From Pristiophorus japonicus (lineage: Eukaryota), in assembly GCF_044704955.1 (NCBI RefSeq), contig NC_091980.1, positions 130,944,001-131,008,000 on the forward strand: a stretch of 64,000 nucleotides of DNA, read 5' to 3'. Numbering within the stretch: the first letter of the stretch is position 1; each line of letters opens with the position of its first letter. Below the pieces are notes generated by a model. It did no database searches, was not told where the DNA came from, and was given only the letters and a program-made list of their open reading frames with translations. Shown here in pieces: positions 1 through 60,600 of this stretch. Made by a program: the position numbers and the translations under genes.

Positions 1-134
1 GCTCTGCATGGACCAATTAATGGCCAACTTGAAAGGTTCATTGAAACCCCTGTTGTTTGCGAGTCAGTGTCTTTTTAATAGTTCTGGATTGTTCAGTGGG
101 TTGGTCATTTTCAGGTATCTGCGGGTTTGAAGCA

Positions 135-13865: not shown

Positions 13866-13985
13866 TACAGTTATGGGTTTCAGCTCTTTGTATAAAGTAC
13901 AAGCCTTCATTCCTGACAGGACAGGGGCCTGATTATATAAATACAAGTAATAAACAAAATAAGCTTGATCCCATCAGTTAGTTTA

Positions 13986-14159
<174 letters not shown>

Positions 14160-15349
14160 CTAGTTATGGCCAGTAGCAGATATCAACGAACATCAGAGCA
14201 TTCCCTCGCGTTAGGATTTTAATTCTCGAGGAGTGGAGAAGGATCAGGTCGGGCAATTGAGATTGACGTATATTTGCTCTAATGATCGACTAACTCCTGT
14301 ATAATGTGAGCTCAGATCCTGGAAACGTTGGGACACATTTACTTCTCAATGTCCACAGTCGGCCAACTTCCCGGTCCTCTCCCCACCCCCTGAAGAACCC
14401 AGGAGAAACCCTCCCCAAAAACAAAGCTATTGTTCTGAGATCTTTTGAAACAGCTCACGGACAGCAATGTTCCACTACCTTCAACTTACCCAGAAACCCA
14501 CATGAGGAATTTACATGAGGGTCAGTGCTCCCAGTGGAGAGTTTGTGCAGATCCAGCAGACTCTGGTTGACATTCTTCTGCATCTGCAGAGCTCTCTGCA
14601 TCACTTCCAGACCATTGCTCCACTCATCCTGCTCTGGTTTCTGAAGAGGAAAGTCACAGGCAGTTCACTTACAATGGAACAAACAAAATACACCAGACAG
14701 TACAAGGAAAATAGGGGTTTGAAAAAGCAACGAGACATCGATGTTACCATAAACAATGTGTCATAGGAATATAGAAATAATGCATTACACTACCACAACC
14801 ATGGAACCAATTGCTTTCGGAGGTATTTGAAACAATCAGGTCCAAAGGTATCCAGACAGAAGGCCACTAGTTTATTGAACTGAACCTTGATGTCAGACAA
14901 GATGATCCGTCCTCCACGGCGATTCTAGAATTCCATCAGTTTCTCAGCATGCTCACTTTCCTCATGTGACTGCTCCTTGAAGAACTCAGCAAAGTGACGC
15001 AGGGCAACATCATCCCGGTCAAAGTAGAAGGACTGCAGAAAGAATTTAAAACAGCTTCTTTAGACCTTGATCTTCATATACAATGCAGAGTTATTTTTTC
15101 CCTAGTTAGTGAATTCTTAATCCTTCAAAAATAGACACCATTTGTAAACTAGCAAAATGCCATTGACTTCATCAATCAGAGTTGAGCCTCACCTCCCTAT
15201 AGCACGATGAAAATTTTTCTTTGCTGGATGAACCTATAAACCTAAAGTTCAGGATATTTCATGTCCAATCAAACTAAATTCCACTCCTGGATAAGCAATA
15301 CCTCCTCTACTTTCTGTCATTCACACAAGAGTGTGTCAGTCATCAGGTG

Positions 15350-15730
15350 GATGTGAAAGATTAAGGAGGAGAGATTGAGCAGACTAGACCTCTATTCTAG
15401 AGTTTAGAAGGATTAGAGGTGATCTCATTAGAAACATACACAATTCTTACAGGGCTTGAAGGATTAGATGCAGGGAGAATGGTTCCCCTTGCTGGTGAGT
15501 CGAGAACCAGGGGTCAGTTATTGAGGTCAGAGGTGAGGAGGAATTTCTTCACTCAGGGTGGGACTCTTTGGCATTCTCTACCCCAGGAGCTGCAGAGGCT
15601 CAGTATATGCACAAGAAAGAGAAAGAGTAAGAGGAAAAGAGAAAGAGCGAATTTTTTAGATACCAAGGGATCTGGGGACAGTGCAGGAAGTGGAGTTGCA
15701 GTACAAGATCAGCAATGATCTTAGTGAATG
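15350..15730 (+). mobile_element. Old CR1 3' fragment in ferritin A intron 1 (copy ~50520-50860)
   Basis: LETYTILTG...ESRTRG...RRNFFTQ, the CR1 ORF2 C-terminus. Confidence 0.7.
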
Positions 15731-15769
15731 ACAGGAATAGGCCATTGGCCCCTCAAGCCTGTTCGATGT

Positions 15770-15990
15770 TCTCAGTACTACTGCAGGGAGCTCTCTGCAG
15801 TGTCCTGGCCAATATTTATCCCTCAACCAACACCACTAAAATAGATGATCTGATCATTATCTCATTGCAGTTTGTGGGAGCTTACTGTGCACTAATTGGC
15901 TGCTGCATTTCCCACATAACAGGTAACTACTTCATTGGAATGTCCCAATGTGTTTTGTTGCCAAGGTAGTGAAAGGCATTATAGAAATTA
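15770..15990 (+). mobile_element. Deu-domain-like SINE fragment in ferritin A intron 1 (copy ~50900-51125)
   Basis: 'gtcctggccaatatttatccctcaaccaacacc' is the reverse complement of the element at 24330-24600; resemblance to SacSINE1/AmnSINE1 is from memory. Confidence 0.5.
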
Positions 15991-16640
15991 TTATTCTTCC
16001 ATTCTAGTCCAAGTTTGGGCAAGGAGTGAGAAAAATCCTCCACTCCAATAGTTTACACAGCAATAGTGTGATAGAGATCTCAGCACATTGAGCAAGGCTC
16101 CAACACCAGGATTCTCAGTACTTCACCTCCAATAAGAACACTCGGAGGACCTGCCCACATTTCACTCACTACAGTCCCCCCACTGAAACTGAACAACAGG
16201 CCCCTGACCAGGTTTGTGCTCTTCTGTCACACACTCAGGCAGCAGCTGGGCTGGTTTCAGATATTAAACTTCAATAGAGGGTAGCTGCAACAGGTAGCAG
16301 TCCATTAAATCAACAAGATCTCCCTGTATTACACACCTGAAGTGCTCACTACCCAAAGACTCTTCTCCATCAGGAAAGGAAGTCCAGAGAAAAACAACTT
16401 AAAGCCAGTTCATTGAACTGGAGAATTAACAACTTTTCAGAATGCAGCAACAAGGAATACACAACTCACCATGGAGAGGTAAACATAGGAGGAACAGAGC
16501 TCCATGTTGATCTGCTTGTTGACAGCTGCCTCACAGTCCTTGAGGTAGTTCTGACACACTTGGGAAGCAATCTTCACAATATATATTTCACTATCACCTG
16601 CACAGATCTAGAAATCACTCTGTGATTGCACAAGCTCCTG

Positions 16641-16750
16641 TATTTATACTATTGGAACAGCTGCATTCAAACAGGGTATGACATCACCATCGATGATTGA
16701 CAATCCCTGAGAGCCAATCAGGAATCTTCCCTGAATTCAGGCACCAATTA
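16641..16750 (-). promoter_or_regulatory. Promoter of ferritin A1: TATAAATA (16648-16641), TGACATCA CRE-like site, two CCAAT boxes
   Basis: Same motifs, with near-identical spacing, upstream of A2 (TATA 51797-51790). Confidence 0.7.
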
Positions 16751-20139: not shown

Positions 20140-23100
20140 TCAATCACTTTCCCCCAGGGTGTGCTTATCAAACAGATACTTCCCCATGCCATTTTCAGGG
20201 GCTCAGTCTCTTCAAGTTGGTGATGTGATCTCCAAGCTTCTTGATCATCTTCACTTGTTCATCCAAGTAGTGTGTCTCCAGGAAGTGTCACAACAGAAGG
20301 AGAAAAGAGGGAAACTAGTTGTGACCAGGAGCAGATATCAAGGAACATCAGAGCTTACCCATCGAGAGTTTGGATTTTAATCCTCTTGAACTGGAGGATA
20401 GTCAAGTGGTGCAATTGAAATCAATGGAATTGCTGCATCATTTAGATTAAACGTGCTGCACGATAGTTGCTGGGATACATTTACTCGTCAATGTCCACAG
20501 TGGGCCAGCCTCCTGTCCCGACCGCTCCCCCCACCCACCAAAAAAAAACCCCATCATGAAGCTATTGAGCAGAGATTTTTGTAGTAGGCTCAAGGACAGC
20601 AAGGTTCCACCACCTCCAACTTACCCAGAACCCCACATGAGGAACTTACATGAGGGTCGGTGCACCCAGTGGAGAGTTTGTGCAGATCCAGCAGACTCGG
20701 TTCACATTCTTCTCCATCTGCAGAGCTCTCAGCATGGCCTCCAGACCATTGCTCCACTCATCCTGCTCTGGTTTCTGAAGAGGAAAGTCACAGTTCCTTT
20801 ACAATGGATTAAACAAACAAGTATTGAAGGAATTAGGGATGAAAAAAACAAATCAGAAGTCAAGGATACCATGAACCAATGTGTTAGAATATAGAATTAC
20901 TACATTAAGCCATCAACCACTGGAGTCAAATTGATCAGGTGAATAGCATAGATGTATTTAAGGGGGAGCTAAATAAGTACATGAGGGAAAAGGAAATAGA
21001 AGGATATGTTGCTGGATAAAGCAAGGTGGGAGGAGACATCTAGAGTCTGATCACCAGCACAGACCAGTTTGTCCAAATGGCTGGTTTCTGTGCTATAAAT
21101 TGGAACCATCTGCTTTAAAATGTATTGGGAGCAATCAGTCTAAGGGGAGCCAGACAGAAGGCCCATTGTTTATGGAGCCAAACCTTGATGTCTGCCAAGA
21201 TGATGCGGCCTCCACGCCGATTCTGGAATTCCATCAGTTTCTCAGCATGCTCACGTTCCTCATGTGACTGGTCCTTGAAGAACTCAGCAAAGTGACGCAG
21301 GGTAACATCATCCCGGTCAAAGTAGAAGGACTGCAGAGGGATCAGAAGAGTAGTTGGGTATCACATGACAGATCCATTATTGTGGGTATTGTACACAAAG
21401 CCAAACTCAATTTTGCTTCCTTCAAAGGGTTCAATATCTCCCTGAATTTCAATGTACAATGTTACACAAGCTAGCACCAGCCGACTGACTTCACTAATGT
21501 GGTAGAGAGTGGATAATCCCCGAGCAGTAGGGAAGCTGGATAATGGAAAATCAAATGTGATTGGCGAAAGGAACAGAGGCAACAAGAGACAACTTTTTTT
21601 TTTAATAAATACATCGGGTGCTTGAAAGGATGATGGCAGTAAATTAAATGGCAACAGCTTAAACAAAAAATAGACATAATAGGGACAAATTTGCAGGGCT
21701 ATGGGATAGAGCAGGGGAGTGGAACTAGTTGGATAGCTCCACCCAACAGTCAGCATGGGCAGGATGGGCCGAATGGCCTCCTTCAATGCTACATCATCCC
21801 ATGGTTACCAATTCAGCTTTGATAGAACATGCTCAAAACTATAACCTTAATCTTGGCACCCAATGCTCAAGTGTAGGTTTAGAAATTAGTGAATGATTAT
21901 TATTAACAGTACCATTCCAATCATGGTTTATTGACCAAGATCCATTTTGTACAGACTAGCCAAGGGGCACGACCGGAACTAGAAGCAAAGCCCTTAAAGT
22001 AGAGATCTAGTCACAGCACACAATTCACATAGTACATCTGGCCCAAGTGTTACTGGCTACATTCATCCCGTGGAGCCAAAACCACACAGCATTCATTTGG
22101 CACCTTCAAAACTAAACATCAAGGCATTCCAGCGGACAACCAGATACCACCCCTCAGCTTGAGGTCATCAATGAAGGTCAAGGTAGGGAAGCAGAGGGGT
22201 TAAGGGAGAGTTCCACCGAGTAGGGGGGAAATGGCTGAAGGCTTTACCACTAATAAAGCAAAAGGGAGTTAGAGAAAAAAAAGACAGAAGGGCAAAAACT
22301 GGTAACTAAAGTGAGGAGTTCAAGAACATTAGGAACAGGATTGGCCATTCAGCCCCTCAAACCAGTTCCACCATTCAATTTGGTCAGATCTGCAGCTTAA
22401 CTCCATTTATCCAGCAAGTAATTGGGAAAGCAAATGGTTTGTGAGCTTTTGTTACAAAGGGATTGGAGTTTGTGTAAAAGTCTAGCTATAATTATACAGG
22501 ACATTCTGGGTGTCCTCACCAAAGTATTGTGTACAGTGCTGGTCTCCTTACCAAACAAAGGACATACTTGAATTAGAGATGGAACAACAAAGGTACACTA
22601 GACTGGTTCCTGGAATGATGATGGGATGGCCCTATGTGGAAAGATTGAGTAGACTAGGCCAATGTTCGAGAGTTTAGTAGAATGAGGTGCAAATCTAATT
22701 CAATAAAATTCTTCAGGGGCTTCACAGTATTAATGCAGAAATAATGTTTACCCTAACTGGGGAAATCTAGAACCAGGGGGTCACAGTCTGAGAATTAGGG
22801 GTTGGCCATTAAAGACTGAGAGGAGTTGAAATTTCCTCACTCAGAGGGTGATGAATTTATGGAACTCTCTACCCCAGAGGGCTGTGGATGCTCAGTCGTT
22901 GAGTATGTTCAAGACAGAGGTCAACAAATTTTTGGAAAGTAAAGAAATTATGGCCCAAGGGATAGTGTGGGAAGATGGAATTGAAGGAGAAGATCAGCCA
23001 AATGGCCTACTCCTATTTTTTTAATGTTCTAATCCCTTGATACCCTTACCCATCAAAAACCTTGCCCAGGCAGCCACGGCCTTGGGTGGGTGGAATGCAG

Positions 23101-23397
23101 GAAGCAAGGAGAGAGAATATGTTCCAGACTTCCAACACACGTGTGAAAAGTTGCTTCCCGACTTCTATTATAGTATAGCTTTAACAAATGAATTCACTGT
23201 GCATCTAGTGAGGAGTGGGCCAGATACAGCACAGAATCTAGTAAATTGGCATTGCAACAGGTGCATTGTGAAGTGCTCAGAAATACAAAACTCACTATGG
23301 AGAGATAAACATAGGAGGAACAGAGCTCCATGTTGACCTGCTGGTTGACAACAGCCTCACAGTCCTTGTGGTAGTTCTGACACACTTGAGAAGCCAT
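20140..23397 (-). pseudogene. fth1-like: Ferritin H/M-type pseudogene, copy B1
   Basis: Exons 23397-23296 ([34 protein letters not shown]), 21330-21184, 20774-20650 (125 bp, 1-bp deletion at ~20698) and 20293-20140. Exon 4 has acceptor CAG>CTG, TGT GAC>TGA CAC, and a 2-bp deletion at ~20204. Confidence 0.92.
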
Positions 23398-23430
23398 CCT
23401 AAGTTGCTTTTCCAAAAATCTATGCCTCGT

Positions 23431-23640
23431 TGAAGCAAGAAGCTAAGAGTTAGCTAATTTCATACTCCTGTCTTTATACTGTTGGATAATCCAGAGCGTG
23501 ACAGTCAAGCTGTGAGTGACATTCCTCAATACTCAATCACAAGTTGCAGCCTCTGTCAGAGCACCAATCATGTAAAGGGAGGAGGGGCCATAACTCCCAG
23601 AGCCAGTCACGAACTTTGATGAATGAGCATCATTGGCTGA
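23431..23640 (-). promoter_or_regulatory. Promoter of ferritin B1: TATAAAGA (23438-23431), CCAAT at 23564, ATTGG at ~23632
   Basis: Layout conserved upstream of B2 (~57733-57890) and C1 (38052-38215). Confidence 0.65.
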
Positions 23641-23965: not shown

Positions 23966-24329
23966 ATTGAATCTTCCGTTGTGTGCGAGTCAGTGACTTT
24001 TTAATAGTTCTGTGCGGTTCAGTGGGTTGGTAAATTTCAGATATCTGTGGATGCAACATCCAATGACGGAGCAATGAGTCTGCAATGCAACCGACAGCAG
24101 GTCAGGTGAATGGTCAGTGTGTGTGAGGAATTTGACAAGCGCAAGTGCTCAGATACTCCATCACTTCCAAGTTTAGTGAGCACCTGTACACACAGGAGTT
24201 AGAATGTGGCACGGACCGTGGGATTTTGAGTTCTTGTTATGTTACCATGACATTTTACAAGCAATGAAATGGACTGCAGTCCAAAAAGACAAAATATCGC
24301 CCTGCACCTGGACTTCATTGTGGCAGCCT

Positions 24330-24858: not shown

Positions 24859-25951
24859 AAACATAGAAACATAGAAAATAGGTGCAGGAGTAGGCCATTC
24901 GGCCCTTCTAGCCTGCACCGCCATTCAATGAGTTCATGGCTGAACATGCAACTTCAGTACCCCATTCCTGCTTTCTCGCCATACCCCTTGATCCCCCTAG
25001 CAGTAAGGACCTCATCTAACTCCTTTTTGAATATATTTAGTGAATTGGCCTCAACAACTTTCTGTGGTAGAGAATTCCACAGGTTCACCACTCTCTGGGT
25101 GAAGAAGTTCCTCCGCATCTCGGTCCTAAATGGCTTACCCCTTATCCTTAGACTGTGACCCCTGGTTCTGGACTTCCCCAACATTGGGAACATTCTTCCT
25201 GCATCTAACCTGTCTAACCCCGTCAGAATTTTATATGTTTCTATGAGGTCCCCTCTCATTCTTCTGAACTCCAGTGAATACAAGCCCAGTTGATCCAGTC
25301 TTTCTTGATAGGTCAGTCCCGCCATCCCGGGAATCAGTCTGGTGAACCTTCGCTGCACTCCCTCAATAGTAAGAATGTCCTTCCTCAGGTTAGGAGACCA
25401 AAACTGTACACAATACTCCAGGTGTGGCCTCACCAATGCCCTGTACAACTGTAGCAACACCTCCCTGCCCCTGTACTCAAATCCCCTTGCTATGAAGGCC
25501 AACATGCCATTTGCTTTCTTAACCGCCTGCTGCACCTGCATGCCAACCTTCAATGACTGATGTACCATGACACCCAGGTCTCTTTGCACCTCCCCTTTTC
25601 CTAATCTGTCACCATTCAGATAATAGTCTGTCTCTCTGTTTTTACCACCAAAGTGGATAACCTCACATTTATCCACATTATACTTCATCTGCCATGCATT
25701 TGCCCACTCACCTAACCTATCCAAGTCGCTCTGCAGCCTCACAGCATCCTCCTCGCAGCTCACACTGCCACCCAACTTAGTGTCATCCGCAAATTTGGAG
25801 ATACTACATTTAATCCCCTCATCTAAATCATTAATGTACAGTGTAAACAGCTGGGGCCCCAGCACAGAACCTTGCGGTACCCCACTAGTCACTGCCTGCC
25901 ATTCTGAAAAGTACCCATTACTCCTACTCTTTGCTTCCTGTCTGACAACCA
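24859..25951 (-). mobile_element. Young 5'-truncated CR1 LINE
   Basis: Uninterrupted ORF 24954..25982 (GVPQGSVLGP, FADD, RPHLEYC), 3' (TTTCTATG)n tail; absent from unit 2 at ~59040. Confidence 0.92.
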
Positions 25952-26253
25952 GGTGGAGATAGATAGATAGATTTTTGAACAATAGGGGTCAAGGATTATG
26001 GGGAACAGATAGGAAAGTCTTGAGACCAAGATCAGATCAGCTATGATTATATTGAATGGCAGAGCAGGCTCGAGGTGCCAAGTGCCATAAGCGTGTTATG
26101 TAAACCTCTCTGCCTCCTTTACGACACTAAAATGTACCTATGGTCCCACTGCCTTATGTGGCTGAACAAACGTGAACATTTTCAACTGTTGTATTACATC
26201 ATTGCAACGTTAGATTGAAATGCATGAATAGAATTTGCAAGATATACTCTTAT

Positions 26254-26462
26254 GTATTAATGCTTGGGAGTCACAAGACACCAGAGGGCGCCGCGGTCAG
26301 AGGTCATCGGGCTGTACGCATGTAGCATGTGTGCTTCATCAGCTGTATATAAGCTGGGTGTCTTTGTCACACTGGCACTCTTGGGCTGGACTAAAGATGG
26401 ATCAGGTTGCACCTGAGTGAGTTTACAGTAACCAGACTTTTGAGTCATTACATATACGTACA
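26254..26462 (+). mobile_element. Solo Gypsy-type LTR (copy ~59340-59548)
   Basis: TG...ACA ends, CCAGAGGGCGC motif, TATATAA, and a poly(A) signal (AATAAA in the unit-2 copy). Confidence 0.6.
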
Positions 26463-26482
26463 ATTGAAATTAGGTCTTCAAC

Positions 26483-27070
26483 AATGGCTATCGTAGATTG
26501 GGTATTGTGCAATGAGAAGGGGTTAATTAATAGTCTTTTTGTGCAGGGTCCTTTAGGGATGAATGATCATAACATGATTGAATTCTTCATGAAGTTTGAA
26601 AGTGAAGTTGTCCAATCCAAAACTAGGTCCTAAATCTAAACAAAGGAAACTACGAAGGTATGAGGAATGGCTATGATAGATTGGGAAGAGTCATTAAAAA
26701 GCATGATGGTGGACAGTCAATGGCTAACATTTAAGGAACGACTGCATGAATTGCAACAATTATACATTCCTTTCTGACGCAAAACACAAAAGGAAAAGTG
26801 GCCCAAACATGGTTTACAAAAGAAATTAAGGATAGTATTAGATCCAAAGAGGAGTCACACAAAGTTGCAAGAAAAAGTAGCAAGCCTGAAGATTGAAAGC
26901 AGTTTAGTATTCAGCAAAAAAGGACCAAGAGATTGTTTAAGAGGGGGAAATAGTGTATCAGACTAAACTTGCAAGGATCATAAAAACCTATAAAAATTTC
27001 TCCCAGTATGTAAAAAGAAAATGACTAGTGAAGATAAATGTAGGTCCTTTACGGTCACAAATGGGATGGG
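26483..27070 (+). mobile_element. Older decayed CR1 ORF2, left part, split by the young CR1; continues 31821-~33130 (uninterrupted copy ~59577-60950)
   Basis: WVLCNEKG...DHNMIEF homology; continuous in unit 2 at ~60150-60185. Confidence 0.8.
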
Positions 27071-30000
27071 ACAGAGGCGGGAGTCGAGAGAGGCAGCGGC
27101 CTATAAAAGGCTCAGCAGTCCGGGGAGAGTCGAGAGAATCGGGAGTCGAGAGAGGCAGCGGCCTATAAAAGGCTCAGCAGTCCGGGGAGCGTCGAGAGAG
27201 GCAGCGGACTATAAAAGGCTCAGCATTCCGGGGAGCGTCGAGAGATGCAGTGGCCTATAAAAGGCTCAGCAGTCCGGGGAGCGTCGAGAGAGGCGGGAGT
27301 CGAGAGAGGCAGCGGCCTATAAAAGGCTCAGCAGTCCGGGGAGCGTCGAGAGAGGCAGCGGCCTATAAAAGGCTCAGCAGTCCGGGGAGCATCGAGAGAG
27401 GCGGGATTCGAGAGAGGCAGCGGCCTATAAAAGACTCAGCAGTCCGGGGAGCGTCGAGAGAGGCAGGAGTCGAGAGAGGCAGCGGCCTATAAAAGGCTCA
27501 GCAGTCCGGGGAGCGTCGAGAGAGGCGGGAGTCGAGAGAGGCAGCAGCCTATAAAAGGCTCAGCAGTCCGGGGAGAGGCGGGAGTTGAGAGAGGCAGCGG
27601 CCTATAAAAGGCTCAGCAGTCCGGGGAGCGTCGAGAGAGGCGGGAGTCGAGAGAGACGTACCGGTGCAGCTCCAGCTGGGAAAGAAGGCAAAAAAGAAGA
27701 AGAAAGAAATCAAAAGGTGACGTCACAGCCAACGTGGTAAGTGATTGGCTGCTGATTGGTGAGTAGTTTTTCTTTTTCTTTATTAGTCAGTAACTTTTAA
27801 CATTGTTGTCGCCAATTTAAGTGTATCTAAGGGTTAAGTCATGGCAGGACAGCTCAGTCACGTGATATGCTCCTCCTGTACCATGTGGGAACATGGGGAC
27901 AACACCAGTGTCCCTGACGACTACATGTGCGGGAAGTGTATCCACCTCCGGCTCCTGACGGTCCGCGTTGCGGAGTTGGAGCTGAGGGTGGATTCACTCT
28001 GGAGCATCCACGATGCTGAGAATGACGTGAGTAGCACGTGGAGCGAGTTGGTCTTACCGCAGGAGAAGGGTCCACAGCCAGCGAGGGACTGGAAGACCAG
28101 CAGGAAGAGTAGTGCAAGGAAGGTAGTGCAGGGGTCCCCTGTGGTCATCCCACTGCAAAACAGATACACTGCTTTGAGTACTGTTGGGGGGGGGATGACG
28201 CATCAGGAGAGGGCAGCAGCAGCCAAGTTCATGGCACCGTGGCTGGCTCTGTTGCACAGGAGGGCAGGAAAAAGAGTGGGGGAGCGATAGTGATAGGGGA
28301 TTCAATTGTAAGGGGAATAGATAGGCGTTTCTGCGGCCGTAACCGAGATTCCAGGATGGTATGTTGCCTCCCTGGTGCAAGGGTCAAGGATGTCTCGGAG
28401 CGGGTGCAGGACATTCTAAAAAGGGAGGGAGAACAGCCAGTTGTCGTGGTGCACGTTGGTACCAACGACATAGGTAAAAAAAGGGATGAGGTCCTACGAA
28501 ATGAATTTAAGGAGCTAACTTAAAAAGTAGGACCTCAAAAGTAGTAATCTCTGGATTGCTACCAGTGCCACGTGCTAGTCAGAGTAGGAATCGCAGGATA
28601 GCTCAGATGAATACGTGGCTTGAGCAATGGTGCAGCAGGGAGGGATTCAAATTCCTGGGGCATTGGAACCGGTTCTGGGGGAGGTGGGACCAGTACAATC
28701 CGGACGGTATGCACCTGGGCAGAATCGGAACCAATGTCCTCGGGGGAGTGTTTGCCAGTGCTGTTGGGGAGGAGTTAAACTAATATGGCAGGGGGATGGG
28801 AACCAATGCAGGGAGATAGAGGGAAACAAAAAGGAGGCAAAAGCAAAAGACAGAAAGGAGATGAGGAAAAGTGGAGGGCAGAGAAACCCAAGGCAAAGAA
28901 CAAAAAGGACCATTGTACAGCAAAATTCTAAAAGGACAGAGGGTGTTAAAAAAACAAGCCTAAAGGCTTTGTGTCTTAATGCAAGGAGTATCCACAATAA
29001 GGTGGATGAATTAACTGTGCAAATAGATGTTAACAAATATGATGTGATTGGGATTACGGAGACGTGGCTCCAGGATGATCAGGGCTGGGAACTCAACATC
29101 CAGGGGTATTCAACATTCAGGAAGGATAAAATAAAAGGAAAAGGAGGTGGAGTAGCATTGCTGGTTAAGGAGGAGATTAAGGCAATAGTTAGGAAGGACA
29201 TTAGCTTGGATGATGTGGAATCTATGTGGGTAGAGCTACAGAACACCAAAGGGCAAAAAACGTTAGTGGGAGTTGTGTACAGACCTCCAAACAGTAGTAG
29301 TGATGTTCGGGAGGGCATCAAACAGGAAATTAGGGGTGCATGCAATAAAGGTGCAGCAGTTATAATGGGTGACTTTAATATGCACATAGATTGGGCTAAC
29401 CAAACTGGAAGCAATACGGTGGAGGAGGATTTCCTGGAGTGCATAAGGGATGGTTTTTTAGACCAATATGTCAAGGAACCAACTAGGGGGGAGGCCATCT
29501 TAGACTGGGTGTTGTGTAATGAGAGAGGATTAATTAGCAATCTCGTTGTGCGAGGCACCTTGGGGAAGAGTGACCACAATATGGTGGAATTCTGCATTAG
29601 GATGGAGAATGAAACAGTTAATTCAGAGACCATGGTTCAGAACTTAAAGAAGGCTAACTTTGAAGGTATGAGGCGTGAATTGGCTGGGATGGATTGGTGA
29701 ATGATACTTAAGGGGTTGACTGTGGATGGGCAATGGCAGACATTTAGAGACCGCATGGATGAAGTACAACAATTGTACATTCCTGTCTGGCATAAAAATA
29801 AAAAAGGGAAGGTGGCTCAACCGTGGCTATCAAGGGAAATCAGGGATAGTATTAAAGCCAAGGAAGTGGCATACAAATTGGCCAGAAATAGCAGCGAACC
29901 TGGGGACTGGGAGAAATTTAGAACTCAGCAGAGGAGGACAAAGGGTTTGATTAGGGCAGGGAAAATGGAGTATGAGAAGAAGCTTGCAGGGAACATTAAG

Positions 30001-31820
30001 ACGGATTGCAAAAGTTTCTATAGATATGTAAAGAGAAAAAGGTTAGTAAAGACAAATGTAGGTCCCCTGCAGTCAGAATCAGGGGAAGTCATAACGGGGA
30101 ACAAAGAAATGGCGGACCAATTGAACAAGTACTTTGGTTCGGTATTCACGAAGGAAGACACAAACAATCTTCCGGTTATAAAAGGGGTCGGGGGGTCTAG
30201 TAAGGAGGAGGAACTGAGGGAAATCCTTATTAGCCGGGAAATTGTATTGGGGAAATTGATGGGATTGAAGGCCGATAAATCCCCAGGGCCTGATGGACTG
30301 CATCCCAGAGTACTTAAGGAGGTGGCCTTGGAAATAGTGGATGCATTGACAGTCATTTTCCAACATTCCATTGACTCTGAATCAGTTCCTATAGAGTGGA
30401 GGGTAGCCAATGTAACCCCACTTTTTAAAAAAGGAGGGAGAGAGAAAACAGGGAATTATAGACCGGTCAGCCTGACATCGGTAGTGGGTAAAATGATGGA
30501 ATCAATTATTAAGGATGTCATAGCAGTGCATTTGGAAAGAGGTGACATGATAGGTCCAAGTCAGCATGGATTTGTGAAAGGGAAATCATGCTTGACAAAT
30601 CTTCTGGAATTTTTTGAGGATGTTTCTCGCAGAGTGGACAAGGGAGAACCAGTTGATGTGGTATATTTGGACTTTCAGAAGGCGTTCGACAAGGTCCCAC
30701 ACAAGAGATTGATGTGCAAAGTTAGAGCACATGGGATTGGGGGTAGTGTGCTGACATGGATTGAGAACTGGTTGTCAGACAGGAAGCAAAGAGTAGGAGT
30801 AAATGGGTACTTTTCAGAATGGCAGGCAGTGACTAGTGGGGTACCGCAAGGTTCTGTGCTGGGGCCCCAGCTGTTTACATTGTACATTAATGATTTAGAT
30901 GAGGGGATTAAATGTAGTATCTCCAAATTTGCGAATGACACTAAGTTGGGTGGCAGTGTGAGCTGCGAGGAGGATGCTGTGAGGCTGCAGAGCGACTTGG
31001 ATAGGTTAGGTGAGTGGGCAAATGCATGGCAGATGAAGTATAACAGAGAGACAGACTATTATCTGAATGGTGACAGATTAGGAAAAGGGGAGGTGCAAAG
31101 AGACCTGGGTGTCGTGGTACATAAGTCATTGAAGGTTGGCATGCAGGTGCAGCAGGCGGTTAAGAAAGCAAATGGCATGTTGGCCTTCATAGCAAGGGGA
31201 TTTGAGTACAGGGGCAGGGAGGTGTTGCTACAGTTGTACAGGGCATTGGTGAGGCCACACCTGGAGTATTGTGTACAGTTTTGGTCTCCTAACCTGAGGA
31301 AGGACATTCTTGCTATTGAGGGAGTGCAGCGAAGGTTCACCAGACTGATTCCCGGGATGGCGGGACTGACCTATCAAGAAAGACTGGATCAACTGGGCTT
31401 GTATTCACTGGAGTTCAGAAGAATGAGAGGGGACCTCATAGAAACATTTAAAATTCTGACGGGGTTAGACAGGTTAGATGCAGGAAGAATGTTCCCAATG
31501 TTGGGGAAGTCCAGAACCAGAGGTCACAGTCTAAGGATAAGGGGTAAGCCATTTAGGACCGAGATGCGGAGGAACTTCTTCACCCAGAGAGTAGTGAACC
31601 TGTGGAATTCTCTACCACAAAAAGTTGTTGAGGCCAATTCACTAAATATATTCAAAAAGGAGTTAGATGAGGTCCTTACTACTAGGGGGATCAAGGGGTA
31701 TGGCGAGAAAGCAGGAAGGGGGTACTGAAGTTGAATGTTCAGCCATGAACTCATTGAATGGTGGTGCAGGCTAGAAGGGCCGAATGGCCTACTCCTGCAC
31801 CTATTTTCTATGTTTCTATG
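27071..31820 (+). mobile_element. Near full-length young CR1 LINE
   Basis: 5' tandem array; ORF1 from 27841 (CxxC...CxxC zinc finger, SGNH esterase GDSIVRG; frameshifted near 28190); ORF2 with APE endonuclease (LNARS, GITETW, GDFN, SDH) and RT to 31728. Lesions: TGA at 29698-29700, FADD>FAND, in-frame loss of VDKCEVIHFGGKN. Tail TTTCTATGTTTCTATG. Confidence 0.95.
27075..27656 (+). repeat. Tandem 46/62-bp monomers, 10 copies each containing CTATAAAAG, at the CR1 5' end
   Basis: Unit gaggcagcggcctataaaaggctcagcagtccggggagcgtcgaga(gaggcgggagtcgaga); TATAAAA near 27102, 27164, 27210, 27256, 27318, 27364, 27426, 27488, 27550 and 27603. Confidence 0.92.
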
Positions 31821-33694
31821 ATTTATAACAGGGAACAAGGAAATCGCAGAACAATTAAATACTTCAGCTGTCTTCAAAGAGGACACAAATAACATCCCAG
31901 AAATGCTCAGGAACTAAGGGTCTAGTGAGCAAGAGAAATTAAAGGGAATGATTAATTAAATAGTGCTGGAGAAACTAATGGGACTGAAAGCTGATAAATC
32001 CCCAGGGCCTGATAATCTACATCCCAGAGTACTAAAAGTAGCAGCCATGGAAATAGTGGATGCATTGGTTGTCATCTTCCAAAATCCTAGAGATTATGGA
32101 ACAGTGGCTGCATATTCAAGGGTGGTAAATGTAACCCCACTATTTAAAAAGGGAGAAATAAAACGGGTTAACTACAGCCCGGTTAGCCTATCAGAAATAG
32201 AATGTGATAAAGGACACTTAGAAAATATCACCGAGATTAGACAAAGTCACTGTGGATTTATGAAATGAAAACTGTGTTTGACATATCTACTGGAGTTTTT
32301 TTTGAGTATGTAACCGAGATTAGATAAGGGAGAACCAGTGGATGTAGTGTATTTGGATTTTCAGAAGACCTTTGATAAAGTCCCACAAGAGGTTAGTGTG
32401 CAAAATTAAAAGCACATAGGATTGGGGACAATATATGGCCATGGATTGAAAATTGGTTAATTGATAGAAACAGTTGGAATAAACAGGTCTTTTCCTGGGT
32501 GGTGGGCAGTGACTAGTGGGAAACCACAGGGATCAGTGCTTAGGCCCCAGCTAGTCACTAGTAGATTTGGAGAAAACCAAATATAATATTTCCAATTTTT
32601 CACAGTACAGGAGCAAGGTTGTCTCACTACAATTACACAGGGCCTTGGTGAAACTACACCTGGTGTATTGTGCAGAGTTTTGGGTCTCCATAAGAGCAAG
32701 CACAGCAAAGTCCCACCAGACTGATTCCTTGGATGGAAAGATTGTTGTATGAAGAGATTGGGTTGACCAGGCTTGTATTCACTAGACGAGTGAAAGGGGA
32801 CCTTATTGAGACATAAAACTCTGACTGGTTTGGAGAGACTGGATGTGGGGAGGAAGTTCCCCTGGCTGGGAAGTTGAGAATAATAGGTCACAGGCTCAGG
32901 ATATGGGGTAGGAAATTTAGCACTGAGATGAGAAATGTTTCCACTCAGGATGGGGAAGCGGTTAACCACAGAAGGTAGTAGAGCCCAATCACTGAATATA
33001 TAGGAGATAGATATTTTGATCCTAAAAGGCATCAAGGGCTATGGGGTAAAAGCATGAACACTGGTGTTAAGGATCAGTTATGATCCTCTTGAATGTTGGT
33101 GCAGGCTTCAAAAGGGAGACTACTACTGTTTTTATGACTATAAATGTCAATATATTGACATTACCCCAGCAAAGAGAAAAATTATAGGACTGTTCGCACT
33201 GGCAGAAGGGTCGAGAACCAGCAGACACAGATTTAAGGCAATTGGCACAAGAACCACAGCTGATTTGAGGAAAACTTATGCAGTGAATGGTTAATATCTG
33301 GATTGCACTGCCTGCGAGGGTGGTGGAGACAGATTCAATCATAGGTTTGGACAAGTATGTGAAGGGAAAAAAAATGCAGGGTTACAGGGAAAATGCAAGG
33401 GAGTGGGACTAGCTGAAGTGCTCTTGGAGAGCCAGCACAGGCTGAATGCCCTCCTATGCTGTAACCAATGTATGATTGTTGCATAGCCTAGTGCAATACT
33501 TGTGCTGCAAACAAGTTTTGGTAAATGGAGAATAAGCAACCACTCAAACTTGCAAGGAGACAAAAGCCAGTCCAATATTGAACAGTTTATTACATTTCAC
33601 ATCAAGAGCCCAGGTCTCAGCCTGTACAAAGCCACCATTCGATGTAGGACAGAGTTTCACACAATTATATAAACACGAGTACTGATCAGAAGCT

Positions 33695-37970
<4,276 letters not shown>

Positions 37971-38051
37971 CGTAATGTTTTCTTTTTCTACACTTTAAAA
38001 AAAAGCCTTGTAGAAGTATGTAACTAACATTTAACTAATCTCAAACTCCTG

Positions 38052-38215
38052 TATTTATACTGAGGGATAATCCAGGGTGTGGCACTCTTGATGATGATTG
38101 TGTATTGACGACTATCAATCAGAAATTGCAGCCTCTCAGAGCACCAATCAAGTAAAGGGAGGAGGGAGATGGACTCCCAGAGCCAGTCAGATCTTTGAAG
38201 AATCAGCATCATTGG
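38052..38215 (-). promoter_or_regulatory. Promoter of ferritin C1: TATAAATA (38059-38052), CCAAT at 38144, ATTGG at ~38211
   Basis: Motifs conserved with the B-type promoters. Confidence 0.7.
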
Positions 38216-38727
38216 CTGACATCTCAATGAGGATCTCAATTGTCCTAAGACACTTTCCTCAGACACAGTTCAAATATCCAGTGTCACAGGTTAATTGGAC
38301 CCTCTATTCTTTGGGCTAATTAATTGGAATGATTAAATCAGCTATCAGAAACACTTAAATCATAAGTGCCCCCTTTAAAAAGGGGAATAAACTGTAAGAT
38401 CCACATTATGACCAAACTAACATAAAAATGTTACATTATTTCCCTGTATTCATGCTGCACTCCACTCCCTCTGGTGCCCACCGGTCACGGAAAGCCTCAA
38501 GCATACCGGCAGACACTGCGTGCTCCCTCTCCAGGGACACCCGGACACGGATATAGCCGCGGAAGAGAGGCAGGCAGACGGAGAGAATACGACCGTGCTC
38601 TGCCTGGACCAGTTAATGGCCGCTTTAAAAGATTCATTGAATCCTCTGTTGTTTGCGAGTCAGTGTCTTTTTGATAGTTCTGGATTATTCAGTGGGTTGG
38701 TCATTTGCAGGTATCTGCGACTTGGAA

Positions 38728-39653
38728 ATCCCCTCCGTGCCTTTCAGTTCCGCGCGGAGGGGTTTCCTGTACGGGCTGCTCCTGCACACTCTCAACTTTG
38801 CCATCCTCGCCTGCCGTCCGGACATGCCATGGCGTACCATCTTGCTGTCCAGAGGAGGCGGGGGTCCCCGATGGAGGGCACTCTACGCGGGAGTCCTCCC
38901 ACTATTTATCGGGGACTTGGCCTGGAGGGTGGTGCACGGAGCAGTCCCGTGCAATAAATTTTTAAGCCGGTTCACGGGCTCCCAGGCCGCCTGCAATTTC
39001 TGCGGTCTGGAAGAGTCCGTGTTCCATGTTTTTGTGGAATGCACGAGGTTGCAGCCCCTGTTTTATTATTTAAAGGGGCTGCTCCTGAAATTCTGGCTGC
39101 ACTTCAGTCCCGCACTCCTGATCTTTGGACACCCTGTGCGGAGGGGAGCGGGTAGGTCCGAGGGCCTCCTCGTAGGACTGCTCCTGAGCACGGCGAAGGG
39201 TGCCATCAGCCGGTCCAGGCAACGGGCGGTCGAGGGGGTCATTCAACCTGACTGCCTGCCTCTCTTCCGCGCGTACATCCGCGCTAGGGTGTCCTTGGAG
39301 ATGGAGCACGCGGTGTCCACCGGTACGCTCGCGGCCTTCCGCGAGAGGTGGGCACCGGAGGGACTGGAGTGCATCATCACGCCCGGCAACCAAATTTTAA
39401 TTTGATTTTATGTTTTAAGGTTTAATTTGTTTTAATTGCCGGTGTTTTTAGTGTCCCCCTCCCCTTTTATAGGGAGCACTTGGAGAAAAAAATAAGATTT
39501 TAGTGCCCAAAAAAAAAACTTTAAAAAACAAAAAAAACAAAAAAAACCACAAAAAAACACAAAAAAAAGGGCCTTGGAAATGTTTGGTGCGCCCCCCAGA
39601 TCGGAGGGACACCATTTTATGATTTAATGTTTTATTTTTCTCCCAAAAAGAGT
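38728..39653 (+). mobile_element. Young 5'-truncated Tx1-clade (L1 group) LINE
   Basis: Open ORF2 C-terminus with zinc finger (WRVVHGAVPCN...CNFCGLEESVFHVFVEC) to 39405, A-rich 3' UTR, 14-bp TSD TCTGCG(A/G)CTTGGAA at 38714-38727 and 39654-39667; empty site at ~118-131. Confidence 0.85.
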
Positions 39654-40166
39654 TCTGCGGCTTGGAAGCAACATCCAAATAACTCATTGGATATTTGTCA
39701 ATAGACTTATGTCTGGCAATAGAGACAGAGAAGTCGAGAAAGGGAAGTGACGTGACAGAGATGGACCATGTGAAGGTGAGTGAAGGGTGGAAATTGGAAA
39801 CATAGCAAATTAAATTTTCCAGTTTATTGTGAGAGCAGGAAACGGCACCAATGCCAGCAATGTGCTGGAAAAAGTGGTAAGGGAGGGGCCATGGTGGGAT
39901 TTTAATACAAGGATAAGGATCTTGAATTTGAGGCGCTGTCAGACCGGGAGCCAATGATGGTTCACAAGCACAGGGGTTATGGCTGATTGGAACTAGGTGT
40001 GTGTTAGGATACAGGCAGCAGAGTTTTGGATAAGCTTAAGTTAATGGAGCATGTAAAGCCAGCAGGCGAGCATTGAAATAGTCAATTCTAGACATAAAAA
40101 GACAGATGAGGGTTAACCATTAGCGCAGTTCTGAGCTCAGAGCGAGGAATGCCTGCAGCTGAACCC

Positions 40167-48386: not shown

Positions 48387-51721
<3,335 letters not shown>

Positions 51722-51789
51722 CTTCACTATCTATATTTCACTATCACCTACACAGTTCTCAAACTCACACTGTTTTGCACAAGCTCCTG

Positions 51790-51902
51790 TATTTATACTA
51801 CCCCCTGGAACAGCTACATTCAAACAGGGTATGACATCATCAATGATGATTGACAATCCCTGAGAGCCAATCAGGAATCGTCCCAGAATTGAGGCACCAA
51901 TT
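51790..51902 (-). promoter_or_regulatory. Promoter of ferritin A2: TATAAATA (51797-51790), TGACATCA, two CCAAT boxes
   Basis: Conserved with the A1 promoter. Confidence 0.7.
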
Positions 51903-55299: not shown

Positions 55300-57659
55300 T
55301 CAATCACTCTCCCCCAGGGTGTGGTTATCAAACAGGTACTTCCCCCATGCAATTCTCAGGGGCTCCCAGTCTCTTCAGGTTGATGATGTGATCTCCAAGC
55401 TTCTTGTTCATCTTCACTTGTTCATCCAAGTAGTGGGTCTCCAGGATGTCACACAAGTAAAGGAGAAGAAGAAAACTAGTTAAGATCAGGAGCAGATATC
55501 AAGGAACATCGGAGCTTACCCATCGAGAGTTTGGATTTTAATCCTCTTGAACGAGAGGATAGTCAAGTGTTGCAATTGAAATCAATGGAATTATTGCATC
55601 ATTTAGATTAAATTTGCTGCACGATAGTTGCTGGGACACATTTACTAGTCAATGTCCACAGTAGGCCAGCCTCCTGTCCCTTCATACCACCCCCGCCCTG
55701 CACCAAAACAAACCACCACAACATGAAGCTATTGGGCAGAGATTTTTGTAATAGGTTCAAGGACAGCAATGTTCCACCGCCTCCAACTTACCCAGAACCT
55801 CACATGAGAAACTTACATGAGGGTCGGTGCTCCCAGTGGAGTGTTTGTGCAGATCCAGCAGACTCTGGTTCACATTCTTCTCCATCTGCAGAGCTCTCTG
55901 CATCGCCTCCAGACCATTGCTCCAGTTTCTGAAGAAGAAAGTCATAGCTCCTTTACAATGGATTCAACAAACAAGTATTGAAGAAATTAATTAGTGATGA
56001 AAAAATGTAATGAGAAGTCAAGGATACCATGAACCAATGACATTAGAATATAGAATTACTGCATTAAGCCATCAACTGCTGGAGTCAGATTGATCAGGTG
56101 AATAGCATAGATGTATTTAAGGGGAAGCTAAATAAGTACATGAGGGAAAAAGAAATAGAAGGATATGTTGCTGGATAGAGCAAGGTGGGAGGAGACATTT
56201 GGAGCCTGATCACCAGCATAGACCAGTTTGTCCAAATGTCTGGTTTCTGTGCTGTAAATTGGAACCAACTGCTTTAAAATGTATTGGGAGCAATCAGTCT
56301 AAGGGAAGCCAGATAGAAGGCCCCTCATTTATAGAACCAAACATTGATGTCCACCAAAATGATTCGGCCCCTACACCGATTCTGGAATTCCATCAGTTTC
56401 TCAGCATGCTCTCGTTCCTCATGTGACTGGTCCTTGAAGAACTCAGCAAAGTGACTCAGGGCAACATCATCCCGGTCAAAGTAGAAGGACTGCAGAGGGA
56501 TCAGAAGAGTAGTTGTGTATCACATGACAGATCCATTATTGTGGGTATTGTACATAAAGCCAAACTCAATTTTGCGAGGAGTTCAAGAAAATTAGGAACT
56601 GGAGTAGGCCATTCAGCCCCTCAAACCTGTTCCACCATTCAATTTGGTCAGATCTGCAGCTTAACTCCATTTATCCAGCAAGTAATTAGGAAAGCAAATG
56701 ATATGTTAGCTTTTGTTACGAAGGGATTAGAGTTCAAGTGTCAAAGAAGTCTTGCTATAATTATACACGACATTGGTGAGGACACACCTGAAGTATTGTG
56801 TACAGTTCTGGTCTCCTTACCAAACAAAGGACATTTTTGACTGAGAGGTGCAACAACAAATGTTCACTAGACTATTTCCTGGAATGAGGAGATGGCCCGA
56901 TGTGGAAAGATTTAGTAGACTAGGCCAATGTTCTAGAGTTTAGAAGAATGAGGTGCAAATCTGATTAAACAAAATGCTGAAGGGGCTTGACAGGGTTAAT
57001 GCAAAAATAAGGTTTACCCTAACTGGGGAAATCTAGAACCAGGGGGTCACAGTCTGAGAATAAGGGGTTGGCCATTAAAGACTGAGAGCAGTTGAAATTT
57101 CTTCACTCAGAGGGTGATGAATTTATGCAATTCTCTACCCCACAGGGCTGTGGATGCTCAGTTATTGAGTATATTCAAGAAAGGAGGTCAATAAATTTTT
57201 GGAAACTAAATAAATTATGACCCAAGGAGATAGTGCGGGAAGGTGGAATTGAGGGAAGAGATCAGCCAAATGTCCTAGTCCTAATGCTGATGTTCTAATC
57301 CCTCGATACCCTTACCCAACAAAAACCTGTCCAGGGAGTCACAGCCTTGGGTGGGTGGAATGCAGGAAGCAAGGAGAATATGTTCCAGACTTCTACCACA
57401 CATGTGAAAAATTGCTTCCCAACTTCTATTATAGTATAGCTTTAACAAATGAATTCACTGTGCATCAAGTGAGGGGTGGGCCGGATACAGCACAGAATCT
57501 AGGAAATTCACATTGCAGCAGGTCCATTGTGAAGTGCTCAGAAATACAACACTCACCATTGAGAGATAAACATAGGAGGAACAGAGCTCCATGTTGACCT
57601 GCTGTGTTGACAGCAGCCTCACAGTCCTTGTGGTAGTTCTGACGAACTTGAGAAGCCAT
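55300..57659 (-). pseudogene. fth1-like: Ferritin H/M-type pseudogene, copy B2
   Basis: Exons 57659-57557 (103 bp, +1 insertion at ~57605), 56489-56343, 55928-55817 (112 bp, 14-bp deletion), 55456-55300 (acceptor CAG>TAC, +1 insertion at ~55345). Confidence 0.92.
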
Positions 57660-60600
57660 CCTAATTTGCTTTTCCAAAAATCTAAGCCTTGTTGAACCAA
57701 GAAGCTGAGAATTAGCTAATTTCGAACTCCTGTCTTTATACTGGTGGATAATCCAGAGCTAGCTATGAGTGACATTCCTCAATACCCAATCACAAGTTGC
57801 AGCCTCTGTCAGAACACCAATCAAGTAAAGGGAGCAGGGGCCATGACTCCAGAGCCAGTCATGAACTTTGAAGAATGAGCATCATTGGCTGACTCTTTTT
57901 GCTGGTGGCAATTGTAAATTTAAAGTCAAGCATGGGGCCCTTTTTAAAGAGGCAAAACCAATAAAGACTGCAACTTCACAAAAAATGTTAAAGGAAAATT
58001 AACAAATTAAATTAAAATTCTATACCCGAGGTGATGATGCACTCCAGTCCCTCCTCTCATGGAAGGCTGCGAGCGTGCCGATGAACACCGCATGCTCCAT
58101 CTCTTGGGACACCCGGGCGCGAATGTAGCCGTGGAAGAGAGGACGAAGTCGGGCCGAATGACCACCTCGAATGCCCGCTGGCCAGCCATGTTGACGGCCT
58201 CTTGCCTGGGTTAATTGAATCTTCCGTTGTGTGCGAGTCAGTGTCTTTTTAATAGTTCAGTGCGATTCAGTGGGTTGGTAATTTTCAGGTATCCGTGAAT
58301 GCAACATCCAAAGACAGAGCCGTGAGTCTGCAACGCAATCGGCAGCGGGTCAGGTGAATGGACAGTGCGTGTGAGGAATGTGACAAGCTCAAGTGCTCAG
58401 ATACTCCATCACTTCCAAGTTTAGTGAGCACCTGTACACACAGGAGCTAGAATGTGGCGCAGACTGTGGGATTTTGAGTTCTTGTTATGTTACCATGACA
58501 TTTTATAAGCAATGAAATGGACTGCAGTCCAAAAAGAAAGAATATCTCCTTGCACCTGGACTTCACTGTGGCAGCCTTGGGAACGCTTATCCTCTAAGAA
58601 AGAAGGAAGAATTCCATTTATATAGCACTTTCACGGCCTCAGGATATCTCAAAGCTTTTTACAACCAAACAAGTTCAGCAGTGTGTTAATCACCAGATAA
58701 TCTGTTTTGGTTGCAGGATAAATATGGTCAAGGACACCCGAGAGAACACCCCTGCGCTTCTTCGAAATAGCATCCTGAGATCTTTTACGTCCACCTATGA
58801 GAGCAGATGGTCTAGCATCTCATCTGAAAGACGGCACCTCCAACAGTGCAGCAATCCCTTCGTACTTCCCCTTTGACAGTGCAGCAATCCCTCAGTACTG
58901 CCCCTCCGACAGTGCGGCACTCCCTCAGTATGGCCCCTCCGACAGTGCGGCACTCCCTCAGTACTGCCACTCCAACAGTGCGGCACTCCTTCAGTAATGT
59001 GTGTATGTGTGTGTGGTGGCAGGGTCGTTGAATACATTTATGGTGGCGATAGATAGATTTTTGAACAATAGTGGAATCAAGGGTTATGGGAAACATGCAG
59101 GAAAGTATTGAGACCAAGATCAGACCAGTCATGATTTTATTGAATGGCGGAGCAGGCTCGATGTGCCAAATGGCATATGCATGTTATTATGTAAACCTCT
59201 CGGCCTCCTTTAAGACACTAAAATTTACCTGTGGTCCCACTGTCTTATGTGGCTGAACATACGTGAACATTTTCAACTGTTGTATTACAGCATTGCAACA
59301 CTAGATTGAAATGCATCAATAGAATTTGCAAGATATACTCTTATTAATGTTTGGGGGTCACAACATACCAGAGGGCGCTGCCGTCGGAGGTCATCGGGCT
59401 GTACGCATGTGGCATGTGTGCTTGATCACCTGTATATAAGCTGGGTGTCTTTGTCACGCTGGTACTCTTGGGCTGGAATAAAGATGGATGATGTTGCACT
59501 TGAGTGAGTTTACAGTAACCAGACTTTTGAGTAATTACATATACGTAGAATTGAAATTAGGCTTCAACATGACTGAATGGCTATTGTCGAAAGCATATTG
59601 TGCAATGAGAAAGGGGTAATTAATAGTCTTTTTGTGCAGGGTCCTTTAGGGAAGAATGACCATAACATGATTGAATTCTTCATGAAGATGGAAAGTGATG
59701 TTGTCCAATCCAAAACTAGGGTCCTAAATCTAAACAAAGGAAACTATGAAGGTATGAGGAATGGCTATGATAGATTGGGAAGAGTCATTAAAAGCCATGA
59801 CAGTGGACAGTCAATAGCTAACATTTAAGAAAGGAATGCATGAATTGCAACAGTTATACATTCCTTTCTGCCACAAAAACACAAAAGGAAAAGTGGCCCA
59901 ACCTTGGTTTACAAAAGTAATTAAGGATAGTATTAGATCCAAAGAGGAGTCATACAAAGTTGCCCGAAAAAGTAACAAGCCTGAGGATTGGGAGCAGTTT
60001 AGATTTCAGCAAAAAAGGACCAACAGATTGTTTAAGAGGGGAAAATAGAATATGAGACTAAACTTGCAAGGAACATAAAAAACGATTGTAAAAGTTTCTC
60101 CCAGTATGTAAAATGAAAGAGATAAGTGAAATTAAAGGTAGGTCCTTTACAGTCAGAAACGGGATAATTTTAATGGGGAACAAGGAAATGGCAGAACAAT
60201 TAAATACTTCGGTTCTGTCTTCACAGAAGAGGACACAAGTAACATCCACAAATGCTAGGGAACCAAGGATCTAGTGAGCAAGAGAATTAAAGGAAATTAT
60301 TATTAATAAGAAGAGAGTGCTGGAGGAATTAATGGGACTGAAAGCTGATAAATCCCCAAGACCTGATAATCTGCATCCCAGAGTACTAAAAGTAGTAGCC
60401 ATGGAAATAGTGGATCTTTGGTTATCATCTTCCAAAATTCTACAGATTATGGAACAGTTGCTGCAGAATGGAGGGTGGTAAATGTAACCCCACTATTTAA
60501 AAAAGGAAGGAGAAAGAAAACAGGTAACTGCAGCCCGGTTAGCCGAACAGCAGTAGTAGAATGTGATTAAAGGCACACTTAAAAAATATCAACGGGATTA

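Follow-up and report, generated by a model that had tools for sequence, protein, structure and literature searches.

The 64-kb window analysed here (by the window we mean the whole stretch of DNA, which is eukaryotic and rich in repeats) carries five ferritin copies, A1, B1, C1, A2 and B2, each with four exons and all on the minus strand. Probably these copies form an amplified vertebrate ferritin array (likely that of a shark, to judge by the proteins and repeats) shaped by birth-and-death evolution, whose ancestor was an IRE-bearing four-exon gene (IRE, iron-responsive element) and in which the CCAAT and TATA elements were kept and the IRE was lost in place, so that output would be set by transcription and copy number. 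The evidence comes from the state of the genes, their promoters, the scans of their leaders for IREs, and the comparison with ferritin genes that still bear one.

Self-comparison of the window reveals tandem segmental units, 85-90% identical to one another and full of retroelement remnants:

About 1-39650: segmental unit 1, holding A1, B1 and C1
39650-60950: segmental unit 2, holding A2 and B2
From near 60950 to the window end: segmental unit 3

Segmental unit 2 is without the C-type ferritin block, which in unit 1 lies at about 32580-39800. Two of the copies, C1 and A2, are intact, with 176-aa frames and GT-AG introns, and the rest are pseudogenes:

37869..37970, minus strand: coding part of C1 exon 1, with the ATG at 37970
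34901..35047, minus strand: C1 exon 2
34155..34280, minus strand: C1 exon 3
33695..33850, minus strand: C1 exon 4, to the stop
48387..51721, minus strand: A2, intact ferritin gene of 176 aa (exons 51721-51620, 50191-50045, 49050-48925 and 48542-48387)
13983..16571, minus strand: A1, ferritin pseudogene (ATT for ATG, in-frame TAG in exon 2, E104Q)
20140..23397, minus strand: B1, ferritin pseudogene (exon 3 short by 1 nt, exon-4 acceptor AG lost, more lesions in exon 4)
55300..57659, minus strand: B2, ferritin pseudogene (1 nt gained in exon 1, 14 nt lost from exon 3, exon-4 acceptor lost, 1 nt gained in exon 4)

The array genes have the structure of vertebrate cytosolic ferritin genes, with four exons, three introns and a product in the ~175-183 aa class (architecture as described in PMC4117605), and inspection places their ATG directly before the ferritin core. 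Of upstream ATGs the A2 leader has none and the C1 leader one, at TATA+29. The residues E24, Y31, E58, E59, H62, E104 and Q138 are all present in C1 and A2; six of them are ferroxidase residues reported for salmon ferritin (PMC4117605), the source of the numbering used for these six ligands. Reading the sequence alone, an earlier note had taken the array ferritins to be ferroxidase-competent, which agrees with the retained ligands of C1 and A2 but fails for A1 (Q104 and a stop) and for the frameshifted B1 and B2. C1 and A2 differ at 12 residues (dN 0.030, dS 0.171, dN/dS 0.17, Fisher P = 6e-6) and are under purifying selection, with C1 altered relative to A2 at a few otherwise constant residues (R60H, R76Q, P158L). 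Elsewhere, residue 26 in exon 1 is Cys in A1, A2, B1 and B2 and Tyr in C1, and residue 6 is Cys in A1, A2 and B1 and Arg in C1 and B2. Exon 1 is 88-96% identical among the five copies, and the A leaders are 51-56% (~53%) identical to those of B and C. This contrast between similar exons of low dS (0.17, C1 versus A2) and divergent leaders suggests either gene conversion confined to the exons or strong constraint on synonymous sites.

Ahead of each ferritin exon 1 stands the 16-mer AGTATAAA(T/G)ACAGGAG, found exactly five times in the window, on the minus strand. Its chance mean is 0.08 with up to two mismatches allowed, and a count of five was reached in none of 100 shuffles. The five copies are:

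16635..16650, minus strand: A1 extended TATA motif (TATA box 16648-16641)
23465..23480, minus strand: B1 extended TATA motif (TATAAAGA at 23478-23471)
38046..38061, minus strand: C1 extended TATA motif (TATAAATA at 38059-38052)
51784..51799, minus strand: A2 extended TATA motif (TATA box 51797-51790)
57727..57742, minus strand: B2 extended TATA motif (TATA box 57740-57733)

The gap from TATA to start codon is 69 nt in A1, 73 in B1, 81 in C1, 68 in A2 and 73 in B2. A TATA box 34-82 bp before the start of every copy had been proposed from the letters; all five copies do have the box, but the range is really 68-81 nt, and the figure of 34 bp is an error because the B1 box had been misplaced at 23431 instead of 23478-23471. 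The conserved CCAAT boxes proposed along with it are there, as CCAAT or ATTGG (either orientation) 50-160 nt upstream in all five copies. Those of C1 are:

38211..38215, minus strand: distal CCAAT box, aligned with B1 23636 and B2 57888
38144..38148, minus strand: proximal CCAAT box, inverted so that the coding strand reads ATTGG; it aligns across the five copies

The conservation of TATA and CCAAT elements is noteworthy because the A-type and B/C-type leaders around them are so little alike. In the 250 nt ahead of each of the five TATA boxes there is neither a consensus ARE (TGA[CG]NNNGC) nor an MRE, so we can point to no stress or metal element. A scan of the leaders for the Inr pattern did not pin down the start site; from the position of the TATA box we infer a start about 30-34 nt past it, with a 5' UTR of about 45-60 nt if transcription starts at TATA+30.

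The absence of a canonical IRE from every array leader, as the sequence-only reading had it, is upheld by both the Rfam and the SIREs scans, in which controls score. At the gathering threshold (34 bits for IRE_I) Rfam has no match over the 64 kb, and at E ≤ 10 IRE_I finds nothing in the B1 leader, the B2 leader, the C1 leader plus 1.7 kb or the A2 leader plus 1.8 kb; the A1 leader was covered by the Rfam scan at gathering level only. Weak Rfam matches (E 0.05-10) fall far under gathering and were taken as chance. Under the SIREs rules as described in PMC2896125, applied as motifs 1 and 2 plus stem rules, which ask for an apical loop CAGWGH, a 5-bp upper stem and an unpaired C8, no ferritin leader passes, nor does the coding strand upstream of one. 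The 16 SELEX loops of SIREs were covered by a loop-agnostic stem test rather than by loop sequence. In this test A2 and B1 have no passing site, C1 has one at TATA+19, ahead of the expected start, B2 passes with G8 and the loop CAAGGC, and A1 passes with three unrelated loops. As positive controls we used loci fetched by the IRE pattern: IRE_I was found in all four, at 46-57 bits, and the three distinct control loci passed the stem rule with no mismatches. Across the window, SIREs motif 1 with the stem rules passes at just two sites, +40359 and -6203, about the chance rate and away from the leaders. Viral contigs scanned for the IRE pattern gave no matches, and a metagenome scan for the ferritin exon-1 start pattern gave no loci.

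On the one hand, then, the statement that the leaders hold no C-N5-CAGUGN-N5' hairpin is right in that none is canonical. On the other hand, it missed degenerate IREs in B1, B2 and, by homology, C1, and a C-N5-CAGAG-N5' hairpin in A1. The former are:

23419..23441, minus strand: B1 decayed IRE (exact 13-nt 5' arm at 23441-23429, loop CGAGGC, three of five upper-stem pairs)
57681..57703, minus strand: B2 decayed IRE (5' arm retained at 12 of its 13 nt, G in place of C8, loop CAAGGC, four of five upper-stem pairs on paper)
37999..38022, minus strand: C1 decayed IRE (loop CAAGGC at 38010-38005, C8 kept, one of five upper-stem pairs)

The 13-mer TTCTTGCTTCAAC of the B1 leader (23441-23429) exactly matches the ferritin IRE shown in PMC5561112 over positions 2-14, and also the 5' arm of the Rfam IRE consensus. 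With at most one mismatch it has two matches in the window, in B1 and B2 only (chance expectation 0.19; 1 of 100 shuffles), and the 17-mer that includes the loop, with three mismatches, finds the same two places (5 of 100 shuffles); the 13-mer was fixed after B1 had been seen, its place in a ferritin leader was not free, and B1 and B2, being duplicates, do not count as two separate observations. In local alignment to the published IRE, B1 scores highest among 1504 tiles of the window and the B2 score is reached by four tiles including itself. Against three real IREs, the background tiles reaching the B1 score number 4, 13 and 1 of 1398, and those reaching the B2 score 4, 9 and 4 of 1398. Judged by these similarities, the B1 and B2 elements descend from a ferritin IRE.

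Taken by itself the C1 remnant does not reach significance, since 115-155 of 1398 tiles do at least as well. C1 aligns without gaps from the TATA box to B1 and B2, with 30 and 29 of 41 positions identical, respectively, and it is only by this ungapped homology that its element is recognised as a putative IRE remnant. The loop of the IRE register lies at TATA+49 in B1, B2 and C1, and the decayed element at TATA+37..+59. The computed upper-stem pair probability in this register is 0.00 in all three copies and 0.96-1.0 in two controls. In the B/C lineage, as the alignments read, the IRE has decayed in place, the AGU of its loop being changed in both types. The loop change is common to B and C and therefore predates the lesions by which B1 and B2 became pseudogenes; since, in addition, the intact C1 has the most decayed element, loss of the IRE would not be a mere result of pseudogenisation.

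The A-type leaders have no significant likeness to an IRE (92-1036 of 1398 tiles score as high), and each carries an element of a different kind:

16613..16628, minus strand: A1 IRE-like hairpin with a 5-nt loop (unpaired C, five of five Watson-Crick pairs, CAGAG, TATA+20..35)
51767..51772, minus strand: A2 CAGTGT hexamer (TATA+25, stem broken, not significant)

The A1 hairpin spans the expected start site, and about 0.37 such sites are expected by chance per 64-kb strand. Deletion of base 6 of the IRE loop is reported not to lower IRP binding in the yeast three-hybrid system (10.1101/524991). The CAGAG and CAGTGT elements could conceivably be an IRE shifted onto the start site by deletion, and so a second route of loss, a reading that we would put at somewhat short of even; otherwise they are chance likenesses picked out post hoc. 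Whichever reading is taken, A1 is dead and A2 is without the stem.

How the ancestral leader may have been laid out can be seen in L001, a ferritin gene in genomic DNA that bears an IRE and has the residues of an M type. The 13-nt TATA core of this gene is matched at 13 of 13 positions in A1, C1 and A2 and at 12 of 13 in B1 and B2, and the exact core occurs only three times in the window. In L001 an ATTGG stands 53 nt upstream of TATA, the loop of the IRE falls at TATA+71, and another 160 nt lead to the ATG; the exon-1 donor follows the same 34 codons as in the array, and TATA, IRE, ATG and donor lie in a single stretch. The distance from TATA to the start is 76-89 nt in the array versus 231 in L001, about 145 nt shorter, and the layouts suggest that this is mostly sequence lost after the IRE. 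Because L001 holds its IRE between the shared TATA core and the ATG, no upstream exon with an IRE is needed. Before the ATG, a T-rich/A-rich stretch of C1 resembles L001 and L004 (as good a score is reached by 6 and 8 of 1398 tiles), the stretch being of low complexity; the B and A copies have no significant likeness of this kind to either locus. The array proteins are identical to M-type L004 at 104-107 of 150 aa and to L-type L002 at 84-85 of 150, in a comparison that took in these two loci. The nucleation residues E54 and E61 are present in the array, and residue 57 is His, versus Asp in L004 and Glu in L002. A further observation is that the L-type ferritin copy at L002:26-1225 and L003 lacks introns and has an intact IRE; apparently it is a processed copy that retained the element.

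Could the loss of the IRE be without adaptive meaning, the array being a duplication by-product in a repeat-rich region and its surplus copies, barely expressed or dying, having been left to decay? That three of the five copies are pseudogenes fits such relaxation, as do the segmental duplicates, 85-90% identical and rich in retroelement remnants, and the similarity of exon 1 (88-96%) against that of the A and B/C leaders (51-56%) means that gene conversion could hold frames open for a while. We nevertheless consider this explanation unlikely. The dN/dS between the intact C1 and A2 is 0.17, the 16-nt TATA motif and the CCAAT boxes persist in both leader types, which otherwise agree at ~53%, the loop change common to B and C predates the pseudogene lesions, and shark ferritin clusters are reported to be expressed and >85% full length (10.1101/2024.09.09.611499).

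Two other explanations would leave IRP control in place. In one, which we regard as very improbable, the true 5' UTR comes from an IRE-bearing upstream non-coding exon or an alternative promoter, and the proximal TATA is secondary. An acceptor-like TAG does occur in the C1 leader at 37989 (10 of 15 pyrimidines, true acceptors having 11-15), but it is not conserved in B1 or B2. Canonical-looking loops with four of five upper pairs occur at -53301 (1.5 kb upstream of A2), -18121 (1.5 kb upstream of A1) and -23942 (0.5 kb upstream of B1); we rejected them as IREs, since none satisfies the SIREs stem rule in full and chance would give about 2.1 sites of this kind per strand, and that at -23942 sits within a retroelement fragment. 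For B2 the search for an upstream IRE covered the 6.2 kb of upstream DNA within the window. An upstream IRE exon is disfavoured because the fossil IRE lies in the leader between this TATA and the ATG, as does the IRE of L001. In the other explanation, to which we give the least credence of all, the remnants are weakened yet working non-canonical IREs that confer partial IRP control. B2 passes the SIREs stem rule in the IRE register (one mismatch, two wobbles, n8 a G), and its loop retains the C1-G5 pair; a G3U change is reported to have lowered binding just slightly in the yeast three-hybrid system, and by analogy with the tolerated deletion of loop base 6 the A1 pentaloop hairpin would be a plausible binder (10.1101/524991). 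However, B2 and A1 are pseudogenes, the A1 hairpin begins upstream of the expected start site, and among the intact genes C1 retains one of five pairs and A2 has no passing stem. Computed folding is 0.00 for the IRE register in B1, B2 and C1, and unstable upper stems are described as giving weak or no IRP1 binding (10.1101/524991).

Under the preferred reading, loss of the IRE in place, transcription of C1 and A2 would start ~30-34 nt past TATA, and the resulting short 5' UTR of 45-60 nt would not be bound by IRP1/2, so that transcription and copy number, rather than cell iron, would determine the amount of ferritin. The product of both genes would be ferroxidase-active cytosolic ferritin. The least certain step is the last, in which this output would serve as an ovary/oocyte iron store and oxidant buffer regardless of iron status, a step proposed because shark ferritin clusters are reported to be ovary-expressed. 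Freedom from IRP control had been claimed for all the copies; for C1 and A2 it appears well supported (no foldable IRE, ligands kept, dN/dS 0.17), whereas A1, B1 and B2 are pseudogenes. In people, mutations of the IRE are reported to suffice to de-repress FTL, with unregulated overproduction of L-ferritin (PMC11719527). More speculatively, and on balance doubtfully, escape from IRP control may have been a founding step of an ancient amplified shark ovarian family, taken at least twice here, by decay of loop and stem in B/C and, in the A lineage, by a deletion that brought the IRE onto the transcription start. The family would then be a dosage-driven vertebrate counterpart of the IRE-less yolk ferritin, made of standard ferroxidase-active subunits.

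In the Greenland shark genome, 155 FTL- and 179 FTH1-annotated copies are reported, >85% of them full length, and ferritin clusters, of 100+ copies, are described as common to Greenland and great white shark, the largest being ovary-specific in expression (10.1101/2024.09.09.611499). These clusters are likewise tandem and multi-copy with many full-length members (10.1101/2024.09.09.611499), in contrast to the two of five copies that are intact in this window, and we infer a link between the window and such clusters. The words ‘IRE’ and ‘responsive’ are absent from the main text of that report (10.1101/2024.09.09.611499), and the preprint 10.1101/2025.02.19.638963 does not mention ferritin or FTH1. 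Ferritin mRNA is reported to be abundant in fish ovary (PMC1488847).

Mammalian FTHL17, which is intronless and ferroxidase-deficient, and the Xenopus ‘oocyte isoform’ ferritin are both germ-line-associated ferritin paralogues. An FTH1b expansion in the Greenland shark has reportedly been described in a journal paper. Vertebrate M/H ferritin genes with a 5' IRE (as described in PMC4117605, and L001 and L004) share with the array the four exons, the 176 aa, the full ferroxidase centre and E54/E61, and differ from it in that the array has a decayed IRE, a shorter leader and H57; all five salmon H and M isoforms are reported to retain the IRE (PMC4117605). Like the array, FTMT is a vertebrate ferritin with ferroxidase ligands and no IRE, described as transcriptionally controlled and tissue-restricted (PMC13010531). 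However, FTMT is described as an intronless mitochondrial retrogene (PMC13010531), whereas the array genes contain three introns and an IRE fossil, keep the ancestral promoter and lack an N-terminal extension. IRE-less paralogues beside IRE-bearing ones are also reported for snail yolk ferritin, which serves eggs (PMC10799875), and for the atypical sponge ferritins (PMC8395497). The snail protein is described as having a signal peptide and a 42-aa insertion (PMC10799875), whereas C1 and A2 are of standard length and have neither; the sponge proteins have altered iron ligands in the account of PMC8395497, and those of C1 and A2 are unaltered. That the array might encode an FTMT-like or secreted yolk ferritin was ruled out by the three introns and, on inspection, the ATG directly before the core.

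What is already known, therefore, is the existence of IRE-less ferritins (FTMT, snail yolk and atypical sponge); what we did not find in the literature searched, which takes in few subscription journals, is any paper describing an IRE lost from a ferritin array of sharks or other fish, or decayed in an intron-bearing vertebrate array, and IRE decay in place in such an array would be new. The suggestion that the array is an undescribed system has to be narrowed accordingly: it fails if the window belongs to the reported shark clusters, and IRE-less ferritins are a known category; what may be new is the IRE decay in a vertebrate array. A 5' IRE is described as a hallmark of vertebrate cytosolic ferritin genes, used to separate genes from pseudogenes (PMC4117605). 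C1 and A2, intact, intron-bearing and with their ferroxidase ligands kept, indicate that IRE control can be shed with protein and promoter retained. If the window belongs to the ovary-expressed shark clusters, this would offer a mechanism by which hundreds of copies become useful: active IRP would repress extra IRE-bearing mRNA, whereas IRE-less copies would let gene dosage pass through to protein. The natural reading would then be an iron store in the ovary or oocyte that does not depend on cell iron. As the fossil IRE fixes the former position of the element, its loss is datable and testable.

The repeats around the genes deserve a final remark. Non-LTR retrotransposon 3' fragments lie at 38370-39500 (plus strand), 23760-24100 (minus) and 58000-58260 (minus), adjoining the C1 promoter in one orientation and the B1 and B2 promoters in the opposite one, ~300 nt upstream of TATA; the conserved promoter is restricted to the space below them. 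The retroelement ORF beside C1 (38641-39402) has seven homologues in a homologue search, the best of which carries PF13966. At 25988-31823 (plus strand) there is a nearly full-length, young-looking CR1-type LINE, open for 675 aa at 29701-31728; its 3' end recurs in inverted orientation, at 95% identity, at 24859-25952.
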